Shown: piece by piece, positions 55,280-58,437 of the stretch | How the letters are laid out: every line of letters starts with the position of its first letter | How positions within the stretch are numbered: position 1 is the stretch's first letter | Source: a virus | Reading direction: 5' to 3' (one strand) | DNA: 64,000 nt | IMG/VR virus record: IMGVR_UViG_3300002144_000695 | Position numbers and translations under genes: made by a program | The notes under the pieces: generated by a model | Databases searched by the model: none | What the model saw: the letters and a program-made list of their open reading frames with translations, nothing else | Told to the model about the DNA's origin: nothing

Positions 55280-55525
55280 ATGAGTAAAAAACAACAACAA
55301 CATCAACAAATTGTGCCCGGCAATGCATTAGCAGTTAAAGTAATTGGATCATCTCGAGAAGATTTAGCACAAGCACTTAAATCTTGGAAGCGTAAAATAA
55401 AATCAGCAAATATCTTAGAAGAAGTCAAAGATAGACGCGAATTTATTAAACCAGGAGTAAAACGTCGCAAACAATTACAAGATGCAATATTTATGCAAAT
55501 GGTAAGAAATCAGCATGCAAATTAA
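55280..55525 (+). CDS. rpsU: ribosomal protein bS21 homolog
   Basis: LAQALKSWKRK......EVKDRREFIKPGVKRR matches the bS21 core (AL+RF+RK...R..F.KPS..R). Confidence 0.88.
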   Translation: MSKKQQQHQQIVPGNALAVKVIGSSREDLAQALKSWKRKIKSANILEEVKDRREFIKPGVKRRKQLQDAIFMQMVRNQHAN

Positions 55526-55547
55526 AAATTAAACTACTACTACTAAT

Positions 55548-55579
55548 AAAGCCCCTTCCTAATAAGTTGGGGCTTTTTT
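55548..55579 (+). terminator. intrinsic terminator after bS21
   Basis: AAAGCCCC...GGGGCTTTTTT. Confidence 0.75.
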
Positions 55580-55718
55580 ACTGGTTTTTCAAATATGCCT
55601 ATATTTATTTAAGAATACGCTATTTTATCTATTATATAGCGTCTAGTAAATAAAAAAATTCTATTAAGATTTCAAATAATCTTATTTCCAAAACAAAACA
55701 AATTTAAGGAGTAAACTT

Positions 55719-56768
55719 ATGGCAAAATCAGATTTGCTAAAAGAAGCAATCGCAGATGCTCGTGCTGTTAAAGAAACTGCATTAGCAAACGCAAAGATCG
55801 CTCTTCAAGAAGCATTTGCCCCAAGAATCCAACGTATGATTTCAGATCAAATCGAGAATGAACTTGATAGTGAAGACGAAGTACCAATGGATCCAGCAAT
55901 GGAACCAGAGATGGAGGATATGGGCGAAAAAGGCAAAGAAGGCGAAGAAATGGGTGTCAATTGGGTAGACAACAATATTTCATTTGAAGTAGGCGGTCAA
56001 CAATATGATGCAGAAGTAGGAAATCCAATGGATGAACCAGCAATGGAAGACGAGATGGGTGATTTAGAAGACGATATGTCGGATGAAGATATGCCAGCAG
56101 AAGAAGCACCAGCTGAAAACCCTGAGGAAGAATACAATGAAGGATATGATGTGGATGAAGAAGATCTTAATCTTGAAGCTATCATTCGTGAATTAGAAGG
56201 TGATTTATCTGACAAAATGGAAGACTCAGAAATGGAAGAACCAGAAATGGAAGAACCAACGATGGAAGGCGATCATATGTTAGACGAAATGGAAGACGAC
56301 GATATGGATATTGACGAAATCATTGAATCAATCCTACGTGAAGAAGACATGGACGTAACAGGCGATGTTGAAGCTGATACTGAAGGCGATGAATTAGCAG
56401 AAGCAAAAGCAGAATTAGAAGAAGCATATTCGACTGTTAAACAATTGAAATCAATTATCAACGAAGTTAACTTGTTAAACGCAAAACTTCTTTACACAAA
56501 CAAATTGTTCCGTAACTTTGAGTTAACAGAAGGTCAAAAAATGAAAGTAATTGAAAACTTTGACAGAGCTGGAAACACAAGAGAAGTTAAATTAGTATTT
56601 AGTACATTAGCTGAGTCATTTAATCGTCCAACTAAAAAACGAGTGGTAAAAGAATCTTATGCGTCAAAAGCAACAGCAACGACAGCACCTAAGAAAGAAA
56701 CAACACAAGTTTTATCTGAAGGATTTGAATTAGCTAACAGATGGAAAAAATTAGCAGGATTGCTATAA
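55719..56768 (+). CDS. prohead core scaffold protein (gp22-like)
   Basis: DLLKEAIADA.AV+E.A; very acidic middle; EVNLLNAKLLY; precedes MCP. Confidence 0.85.
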   Translation: MAKSDLLKEAIADARAVKETALANAKIALQEAFAPRIQRMISDQIENELDSEDEVPMDPAMEPEMEDMGEKGKEGEEMGVNWVDNNISFEVGGQQYDAEVGNPMDEPAMEDEMGDLEDDMSDEDMPAEEAPAENPEEEYNEGYDVDEEDLNLEAIIRELEGDLSDKMEDSEMEEPEMEEPTMEGDHMLDEMEDDDMDIDEIIESILREEDMDVTGDVEADTEGDELAEAKAELEEAYSTVKQLKSIINEVNLLNAKLLYTNKLFRNFELTEGQKMKVIENFDRAGNTREVKLVFSTLAESFNRPTKKRVVKESYASKATATTAPKKETTQVLSEGFELANRWKKLAGLL

Positions 56769-56793
56769 AATTTTAAACAAAGGAAAAACAGAA

Positions 56794-58437
56794 ATGGAAA
56801 TTTCAAATTTATTACAAACAAATGACTTCGTTCAAAGAAACAATGCTAAATTAGCAGTTTCTAAATGGGAGAAGACAGGATTATTAGAAGGTCTCAAAGG
56901 CGAGACTGAAAAAGCAGGTATGGCGCAATTGCTTGAGAATCAAGCACGTCAACTAGTAAAAGAAGCAACTTCAACAGGTACAACAGCTGGATCTGAAGAG
57001 TGGGCTGGTGTGGCTTTGCCATTGGTACGTAGAATTTTTGCTGAATTTGCAGCTAAAGAATTCGTATCAGTTCAACCAATGAACTTACCATCAGGACTTA
57101 TTTTCTATCTAGATTTTAAATATGGTACAGCTCAAGCTGGATTTGATAATGATAATTCAGATCGTACAGGTGATCCATTTAGTTCTCCAAACGCTGATGA
57201 TTCAGTATTTGGTGTTACAACTACATCAGGTGATCCATCAGGAGGTCTTTATGGTGCAGGTCGTTTTGGTTATTCATTGAATGATGTAACTGCAACAGCA
57301 GTTGCTGCAACAACAGCATCAGCAGTAAGTGCAGGATCAGGGTCAGTTAACTTTGATTCAGATTACACAGCTAACTTGGCAGGATATACAGTTGTTTATG
57401 TATCAACTGGATCATTAGTTAACGCAGACTTAAACGCAGTTCGTTCATTCATATTAACATCTGGATCAAATGTTACTCAAGCAATGAGTGTACCAGCATT
57501 TACAAAATTCAACGCATCATCAGGAAACATTGAATTCTTTGTATCTAAATCAGCAGGTATGTCTGGAACAGCTAATTACACAGTACAATTTAGCAAACAA
57601 CCAACTGACACGTCTAGAGGTGACTTTGAAGACAATTTAGGATCAGCAGGTGCAGGGACATCAGGATTGAATGCCGATGTAGACATTCCAGAAATCAACT
57701 TGGAAATGCAATCAGAGCCTATCGTTGCTAAAACACGTAAGTTGAAAGCAGTTTGGACTCCAGAGTTTGCTCAAGATTTAAACGCTTATCATTCAATTGA
57801 TGCTGAAGCAGAATTGACATCTATGTTGTCTGAGTATGTTTCTATGGAAATTGACTTGGAAATTTTGGATATGTTGATATCAGCAGCTCCAACAACTGAG
57901 TATTGGTCAGCTAAAAACAATAACATTTGGAACGGTGCTGGGTTTACTCAACAAACTGCGACGGGTGATGGATTCTACAACACACAAGGTGGTTGGTTCC
58001 AAACTTTAGGTACTAAACTTCAAAAAGTATCCAACAAAATTCACCAAAAAACGTTAAGAGGTGGAGCGAATTTCTTAGTAACTAGTCCAGCAGTAGCTAC
58101 AATCCTTGAGTCTATCCCAGGATTTGCTGCAGACACAGATGGTACTAAAATGGAATTTGCAGCGGGTGTTCAAAAAATTGGGGCGATTAATAATCGTTAC
58201 ACAGTTTACAAAAACCCATATATGAGAGAAAACGTAATATTAATGGGCTTCAGAGGTGCGCAGTTCTTAGAAACAGGTGCGGTATTTAGTCCTTATATTC
58301 CATTGATCATGACACCATTAGTTTATGATCCAGTTAACTTCACACCACGTAAAGGGGTTATGACTCGTTACGCGAAAAAAGTAGTTCGTCCAGAATTCTA
58401 CGGTAAAGTGTATGTTGACGGGTTAAACACTCTATAA
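56794..58437 (+). CDS. major capsid protein (gp23-like)
   Basis: SVQPMNLPSGLIFYL, KTRKLKA.WTPE.AQDL..H.IDAE.EL, YIPL, KGVMTRYA. Confidence 0.97.
   Translation: MEISNLLQTNDFVQRNNAKLAVSKWEKTGLLEGLKGETEKAGMAQLLENQARQLVKEATSTGTTAGSEEWAGVALPLVRRIFAEFAAKEFVSVQPMNLPSGLIFYLDFKYGTAQAGFDNDNSDRTGDPFSSPNADDSVFGVTTTSGDPSGGLYGAGRFGYSLNDVTATAVAATTASAVSAGSGSVNFDSDYTANLAGYTVVYVSTGSLVNADLNAVRSFILTSGSNVTQAMSVPAFTKFNASSGNIEFFVSKSAGMSGTANYTVQFSKQPTDTSRGDFEDNLGSAGAGTSGLNADVDIPEINLEMQSEPIVAKTRKLKAVWTPEFAQDLNAYHSIDAEAELTSMLSEYVSMEIDLEILDMLISAAPTTEYWSAKNNNIWNGAGFTQQTATGDGFYNTQGGWFQTLGTKLQKVSNKIHQKTLRGGANFLVTSPAVATILESIPGFAADTDGTKMEFAAGVQKIGAINNRYTVYKNPYMRENVILMGFRGAQFLETGAVFSPYIPLIMTPLVYDPVNFTPRKGVMTRYAKKVVRPEFYGKVYVDGLNTL

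Follow-up and report, generated by a model that had tools for sequence, protein, structure and literature searches.

The 64,000-nucleotide (nt) stretch of viral DNA analysed here (IMG/VR record IMGVR_UViG_3300002144_000695, hereafter the window) belongs to a T4-like myovirus that carries, among its head genes, a gene for the ribosomal protein bS21 with a conserved N-terminal extension, and many of its late genes bear short Shine-Dalgarno (SD) motifs. What is directly seen is the gene and the motifs, the bias of the latter to late genes, their conservation gene by gene, and the fact that in related phages they occur together with the extended bS21. From the sequence we infer the rest, namely which host is infected, that the phage protein enters ribosomes and frees their anti-SD, and how translation is affected, and we propose that the extended phage bS21 makes the host anti-SD usable and would thereby activate the weak SDs of the late genes, a reading to which we give a probability of about 0.48. 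The wider version, in which the extended bS21 class of T4-like Bacteroidota phages would turn SD-blind ribosomes into SD-reading ones, the late SDs being a private code for the timing and amounts of virion proteins and loss of the gene bringing loss of the code, is held somewhat more tentatively.

Shine-Dalgarno motifs of the window and its relatives

The SD-like motifs are real, tied to the start codon and late-biased. At all 20 starts that an earlier note on this DNA had listed as SD-bearing, 4-7 nt located 4-11 nt ahead of the ATG match the complement of the 16S 3′ tail, and none of the 12 that it had listed as SD-less has such a match, nor has bS21; the exceptions it named were also right (no SD at 3866, 22302, 27151, 43879, 48913 and 50546, and an SD at 54811). 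AAAGGA, the complement of the 3′-terminal UCCUUU of a CCUCCUUUCU-type 16S tail, is the most frequent motif; the tail is inferred from the nucleotide numbering in PMC7797042. Matches of at least 5 nt to AGAAAGGAGGTGATC at a spacing of 3-11 nt precede 28% of genes versus 0% in the control window from -50 to -31, the frequency of G rises to 29-31% at -8 over a background of roughly 8-10%, and 39 GG dinucleotides lie at -12 to -6 among 74 genes, compared with about 1.5 per position elsewhere. The anti-SD pairing energy computed at the window starts, which the earlier note had named as a check, is likewise enriched, with a duplex energy of -5 kcal/mol or lower at 32% of genes versus 13-20% in three control types, although the individual SDs are weak (about -4 to -9 kcal/mol). 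The strongest anti-SD complement, GAGGTGAT at 7091-7111 (-12.4 kcal/mol), lies within the last part of the upstream gene and stops 2 nt short of the start codon of gene 7112, too close to be scored as an SD; it may mark a mis-called start or a site of translational coupling.

The late genes were recognised by a motif, TATTTATA, found 26 times on the plus strand and four times on the minus strand, almost always 14-27 nt before starts; this motif family is enriched before genes in all the related phages, Flavobacterium phage immuto included. It shares with the T4 late promoter the character of an A/T-rich, strand-specific 8-mer directly before late genes, but differs from the T4 consensus TATAAATA, read with a gp55-type sigma factor, and its role as a promoter is putative. 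When transcription units were assigned by explicit rules, an SD match was found in 27 of 58 late-unit genes (47%) and one of 17 others (6%; p=0.0018), in agreement with the earlier claim that SDs favour late genes. A first, crude automatic split, which these rules replaced, had given p=0.09 because the scaffold and capsid genes had been filed as 'other'. The bias has the same direction in five other bS21-bearing genomes (p=0.013-0.076). Measured in the same way, the early and middle genes of T4, a phage of an SD-using host, carry an SD in 47 of 89 cases (53%), which differs from the non-late genes of the window (p=3e-4). The gap between the late motif and the SD varies from 2 to 15 nt, whereas the spacing of the SD to the start codon is fixed.

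A capsid-based search of IMG/VR returned 80 loci with 56-89% identity, and 73 related loci were compared, bS21 being scored with a profile built from 90 full-length family members. The gene was present in 55 of them, always on the capsid strand and 1.2-2.8 kb upstream of the capsid gene, and absent from 18, each with at least 3 kb of upstream flank, where a relaxed profile search detected no trace of a bS21. In immuto the bS21 slot holds an unrelated acidic open reading frame of 75 amino acids (aa), and no bS21 was found anywhere in its complete genome or in a 98-kb contig. The median share of genes with an SD per locus was 50% (17-70) in the bS21-bearing loci and 8% (0-18) in those without it. 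The difference is gene-specific: the SD of the capsid gene is present in 51 of 51 bS21-bearing and 0 of 18 bS21-less loci, that of the scaffold gene (TTTAAGGAG or GGAG at a conserved position) in 46/47 and 5/11, that of the protease gene in 26/40 and 1/17, and that of the PhoH gene in 34/40 and 1/15, respectively. The terminase gene (1/27 and 2/15) and the portal gene (6/31 and 0/16) mostly lack an SD in both groups, and bS21 itself, which the earlier note had called SD-less, has an SD-like match in only 5 of 47 relatives. Among genes directly behind a late motif, 70 of 127 had an SD in six bS21-bearing genomes and none of 37 in two bS21-less ones. The presence of SDs in bS21-bearing relatives and not in bS21-less ones fits a functional link. 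The suggestion that a high copy number goes with an SD holds for the capsid and scaffold genes as against terminase and portal, but not as a general rule, since PhoH carries an SD as well.

The bS21-less loci occupy three positions on the capsid tree, namely the immuto clade (sister to the window's clade), locus L095 and the L064 group, and SD usage is low in all three. A neighbour of L095, L086, has a degenerate-looking bS21 and only 17% SD.

The extended phage bS21

The product of 55280-55525 (plus strand, 81 aa) matches Pfam family PF01165, Ribosomal_S21, over residues 25-68 (E 1.6e-12, 47.4 bits with a cut-off of 27) and its gene is flanked by the protease gene on one side and by the scaffold and capsid genes on the other, so that the bS21 gene proposed in the earlier note for the head region is borne out. 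A search of solved structures with this protein returned bS21 chains almost exclusively, the best being 9i5v_9 and the Flavobacterium johnsoniae chain 7jil_z (E ~1e-6), both from Bacteroidia. In a scan of 185,579 species' genomes (GTDB, one each), 80 of the 80 best matches were from Bacteroidota, with 32-51% identity, in a comparison that has some bias since its patterns were derived from the phage bS21 family; a diverse bS21 alignment (A1) was too variable for genome scanning and a second alignment (A2) was used. A tblastn search of a phage collection with the window bS21 gave one record only, and look-ups of the bS21 and of an endolysin-like protein in the ESM Atlas returned viral clusters only, with no clue to the host. 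Judged by these comparisons, the phage bS21 is a Bacteroidota-type core with a derived N-terminus.

The N-terminal extension, which the earlier note did not mention, is the clearest phage-specific trait. It consists of 17 conserved, basic residues (MSKKQQQHQQIVPGNAL), ahead of a Bacteroidota-type core and C-terminal helix (…KRRKQLQDAIFMQMVRNQHAN), and of the 25 positions that are invariant or nearly so in the window's clade, nine lie within it. The family comprises 93 metagenomic clusters, almost all of 80-82 aa, with a mean extension of 17.5 aa and a charge of +3, compared with a mean overhang of 1.6 residues in host bS21; neither the host-like length (~61-66 aa) nor the MLII/MIIV start is matched by the window protein. 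At the other end, alignment with host bS21 places Phe71 of the phage protein at host Tyr54 and Met72 at host Ile55, in line with the earlier remark that the C-terminal helix keeps an aromatic residue. Position 54 is Tyr in 39 of 39 hosts; the related phage proteins have Tyr (19), Phe (12), Arg (15), Lys (3) or Val (1), and every member of the window's clade has Phe or Tyr. The C-terminal segment KQLQDAIFMQMVRNQHAN has a net charge of about +1 as counted from the sequence, host C-terminal segments have a mean of +0.7, and the C-terminus of the phage family is somewhat more basic than that of the hosts. Given that the Bacteroidia signature is kept in the C-terminal helix, the extension is the better candidate for a new function. 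The late motif ATATTTAT also occurs inside the gene (55487-55494), over the A-I-F-M codons that include that of Phe71; the close relative L003 reads A-A-F-M there, and the intragenic copy is thus probably a coincidence.

Viral bS21 without the extension shows another picture. At 47 viral loci with a host-like, unextended bS21 (60-66 aa, a MLII or MIII start, position 54 occupied by Tyr in 31 of the 34 different sequences), SDs were found at 8.4% of genes and at 8.4% in the control (1028 genes), and in two of three huge phages with a host-like bS21 SD usage was absent. Taken together, these loci indicate that bS21 alone is not tied to SDs, and that it is the extended variant of the window's family that is tied to them. 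The third huge phage (L223, LR756501), unlike its two sisters, has moderate SD usage nearby (18/71 versus 7/71 in the control window), and its host-like bS21 at 20001-20201 is preceded by AAAGGAGG, as in host rpsU.

Weighing the proposed re-tuning of host ribosomes

The proposed mechanism, a refinement of that in the earlier note, is the simplest reading of the data. In it the host is a member of the Bacteroidota, whose ribosomes normally hide the anti-SD tail of the 16S RNA in a pocket formed by bS21, bS18 and bS6. The phage bS21 would be made by these unmodified ribosomes, which can translate it given its SD-less, host-style leader, and, bS21 being loosely bound and exchangeable, the phage protein would then replace that of the host. 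On ribosomes with the phage bS21 the anti-SD would become usable, either via a weakened pocket or via the basic extension, which could stabilise the short SD-anti-SD helix. The weak late SDs (AAAGGA/AAGGAG, ~-4 to -9 kcal/mol) would have no effect on native ribosomes and be increasingly preferred on converted ones, and the SD-less terminase, portal and bS21 mRNAs would remain at a basal level. Ready exchange of bS21 has been described (PMC9578407), native F. johnsoniae ribosomes need an SD of roughly -13 kcal/mol (PMC13000457), and when bS21 is lost or the pocket is mutated, the anti-SD is released and weaker SDs suffice for initiation (PMC9976891, PMC13000457). Together with the late co-transcription of phage bS21 (PMC9723584), this literature renders the individual steps plausible.

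Several observations weigh against this proposal, and some of them lend themselves to other explanations. Being a product of late transcription, phage bS21 is made simultaneously with its proposed targets; it cannot be a switch set beforehand, and a gradual shift of the feed-forward kind is a better fit. The SD of some late genes starts only 2-7 nt past the late motif, so that its presence in the transcript depends on where transcription starts. The signature of the C-terminal helix in the window's clade (RRKQLQDAIFMQ, versus RRKQIQKAQYVQ in hosts) is still of the Bacteroidia type, with an aromatic residue (Phe/Tyr) at position 54 and a hydrophobic residue at position 55, which predicts, if one follows Jha 2021 and Chen 2022, a still sequestered anti-SD. 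Phe71, which lacks the hydroxyl of the host Tyr54, could still stack on A1534 as that residue does.

The host-like helix and the retained aromatic residue are what would be expected under the model of Chen et al. 2022, where the phage bS21 keeps the anti-SD sequestered and biases the choice of mRNA via its N-terminal part; the SD-like motifs would then be used by the minority of ribosomes that are bS21-free, or be read by the extension itself and not by the 16S RNA. Wild-type F. johnsoniae appears to have a substantial pool of bS21-free ribosomes, as constitutive bS21 lifts ribosomal bS21 by more than 10% (PMC13000457), and the extension is the most conserved phage-specific feature. However, all the motif variants across the clades (AAAGGA, AAGGAG, GGAG and GGAGAT) are complementary to the 16S tail, for which anti-SD pairing is the simplest explanation, and an additional sequestering bS21 would shrink the pool of SD-reading ribosomes, making the co-selection of the two traits hard to explain. 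The viral loci whose bS21 truly mimics that of the host also show no SD motifs, and we therefore regard this alternative as unlikely, even if it survives better than the two that follow.

A Bacteroidota host is likely because the best structure matches are from Bacteroidia, all 80 matches of the genome scan are from Bacteroidota and a cultured Flavobacterium phage stands in the sister clade. Still, the one cultured bS21-bearing relative, 'Microcystis phage Mel-JY01' (L002 / PP395634), which carries its bS21 at the same position as the window, has Microcystis as its recorded host, yet lies inside an otherwise Bacteroidota-associated family; a literature search for Mel-JY01 found no paper. Its bS21 is generic and basic-tailed, closest to those of Firmicutes and E. 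coli, and SDs also stand on its non-late genes (36%), so that the host and the logic of its clade may differ. Such a case could suggest that the bS21-bearing phages infect natively SD-reading hosts and the bS21-less ones SD-blind Flavobacteriia, bS21 doing something else; a capsid identity of 56% does not fix the host phylum, and the independent contrasts are few. Against this speak the non-late genes of the window's clade, which lack SDs (1/17) unlike the early genes of T4 (47/89), and the consistently SD-less terminase, portal and bS21 genes. The window bS21 is moreover closest to Bacteroidota both in the unbiased structure search and in the genome-wide scan, and the sampled Bacteroidota orders show no SD usage: for 449 genes near rpsU in 78 Bacteroidota genomes, the SD position scored no higher than the control (5% versus 6% in Flavobacteriales, 15% versus 18% in Saprospiraceae/Lewinellaceae and 14% versus 12% in Bacteroidales), host rpsU itself carrying GAAAGGAGGTG, as published. 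A difference in hosts thus seems to us a less probable explanation than the previous one. The Bacteroidota -7 promoter element TAnnTTTG was tried as a host marker and rejected, as it was not enriched in the window or in immuto and was enriched only in the sequence labelled G007.

The number of phylogenetically independent contrasts is only 2-3, with which a sign test cannot reach significance, and the raw p-values therefore overstate the evidence. In addition, five of 11 bS21-less loci (L065, L068, L084, L104 and L108) keep TTTAAGGAG before the scaffold gene although the capsid SD is gone; it could have been left over from an ancestor with bS21, or be an element with a second role. Both points would suit SD-like motifs and bS21 being independent traits of the lineages, the motif serving for instance mRNA stability or another phage factor, but this is the least probable of the three alternatives given a perfect capsid association (51/51 versus 0/18) across three separate bS21-less groups and an anti-SD-complementary motif whose spacing is fixed to the start codon and not to the promoter.

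Gene layout, known systems and significance

The window has a G+C content of 32.7% and 75 gene calls, and its gene content (baseplate wedge, large terminase, portal, prohead protease, scaffold, gp23-type capsid and PhoH among others) identifies it as a stretch of a T4-like myovirus genome; no close DNA relative was found in a search of the phage collection with the window DNA, and no tRNA genes in a scan of the window. The head block runs on the plus strand. The large terminase gene (48913-50493; PHROG terminase large subunit) has a late motif 22 nt upstream (48883-48890) and the portal gene (50546-52390; PHROG portal) one directly upstream (50520-50527), neither having an SD. The prohead protease gene (53765-54391; PF03420) is preceded by an SD-like AGGAG (53754-53758). 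The gene directly upstream of bS21 (54811-55260) has an SD-like AAAGGA at 54801-54806, and 16 of 20 of its orthologues in bS21-bearing loci have an SD.

The 19-nt gap between that gene and bS21 (55261-55279) is the leader tttattataaacaagttat, which is A/T-rich and SD-less, with no GG. Leaders of the form AAGTT(AT)-ATG recur here and at starts 36, 13486, 17749, 36091 and 47571, variants of ...A(A/C)AAGTTAT-ATG recur before bS21 across the clades of the relatives, and AAGTT is the commonest 5-mer directly before the ATG in immuto (12/224) and in G004 (14/233); it could be an SD-independent initiation context. A terminator-like hairpin with a U-run (55548-55579) lies 23 nt past the bS21 stop; a simple terminator scan, limited to loops of 3-8 nt, had missed it, and direct RNA folding showed it (-15.3 kcal/mol, z -2.8). 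The 193-nt spacer ahead of the scaffold gene contains a late-promoter-like motif ATATTTAT (55601-55608), whose promoter role is presumed. The hairpin, the U-run and this spacer with its motif place bS21 at the end of a late head-gene unit; the hairpin would terminate that unit, which runs from portal to bS21.

The acidic scaffold, or prohead core, protein (55719-56768) was assigned by position, composition and synteny with the pre-capsid gene in immuto and Mel-JY01, a Pfam search giving no match, and its gene has an SD-like AAGGAG (55706-55711) 7 nt ahead of the ATG. The corresponding acidic gene of immuto (L001, 4731-5972) is annotated as 'DNA polymerase phi-like protein', probably a low-complexity mis-annotation. 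The gp23-type major capsid gene (56794-58437; PF07068, E 7e-77) has an SD-like AAAGGA (56779-56784) 9 nt ahead of its ATG, and the nearest named capsid proteins are those of immuto and Mel-JY01, with ~56% identity each. Homologues of T4 gp47/gp46 (SbcD/SbcC-like; 36768-40843) lie inside the structural block and lack both the late motif and an SD, as would suit early or middle expression. A repeat of ~50 nt (…CAAACAAAGTTACCAAAAGAYTAGGA… then CTTATATTTA) occurs at ~510-590, 820-900 and 1920-2000, upstream of genes 592, 902 and 2006, and may represent an early promoter together with an upstream site.

Phage bS21 beside head genes, anti-SD sequestration and rpsU autoregulation are already known. 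The bS21 of freshwater Bacteroidetes myoviruses (Chen et al. 2022, PMC9723584) is similar to that of the window in its position in the terminase-portal-protease-capsid block, its Bacteroidota-like sequence, its expected late expression and its aromatic residue at Tyr54. In those phages, however, the gene runs opposite to the head genes and its product is described as host-like with Tyr or His at position 54, whereas the window gene shares the strand of all its neighbours and combines an N-terminal extension and Phe at 54 with late-gene SDs nearby. The 47 loci with host-like viral bS21 fit that description, by which alone they were matched; the paper contains no SD analysis of phage genes.

In the autoregulation of F. 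johnsoniae rpsU and its anti-SD sequestration (Jha 2021, PMC7797042; McNutt 2023, PMC9976891; Arpin 2026, PMC13000457; Naeem 2026, PMC13000453), as in our proposal, the composition of the bS21 site of the ribosome decides whether an SD-bearing mRNA is read, amid an SD-less background. There the signal is the absence of bS21, the target is a single gene and its SD is a very strong one of 13 bp; in the phage the signal would be the presence of a variant bS21, with many late targets and SDs of 4-7 nt. Also, F. johnsoniae rpsU has an SD and the phage bS21 gene has none. The bS21 paralogues of Francisella tularensis (PMC9578407) offer a similar case of an alternative bS21 in one ribosome pool altering the translation of a subset of mRNAs, but they are chromosomal, in an SD-using gammaproteobacterium, and involve no phage and no anti-SD unmasking. 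Pelagibacter phage HTVC008M is, like the window, a T4-like myovirus with bS21, and entry of that bS21 into E. coli ribosomes has been demonstrated (Mizuno et al. 2019, cited in PMC9723584 and PMC9976891); no partner mRNA element is reported for it in the literature searched, and its bS21 was not detectably close to that of the window by tblastn against the phage collection. Our literature search, mostly without subscription journals, found no report linking phage bS21 to SD motifs on phage genes, separating extended from host-like phage bS21 or describing the gene-specific SD pattern.

bS21 is described as by far the most frequent phage-encoded ribosomal protein (PMC9976891), and the published proposals go no further than that it 'favours phage mRNAs', without a feature by which these mRNAs could be told apart. 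The weak SDs on specific late genes supply a candidate for such a mark, and a natural comparison is at hand, the mark being missing in bS21-less relatives and in phages with a host-like bS21. The tools for testing it exist in F. johnsoniae, including reporters, bS21-depleted ribosomes, anti-SD-ablated ribosomes and cryo-electron microscopy. If true, the proposal would provide a clear case of a virus specialising the ribosomes of its host via a single exchangeable protein, and it would explain the conserved anti-SD of Bacteroidia as a liability that phages can exploit.

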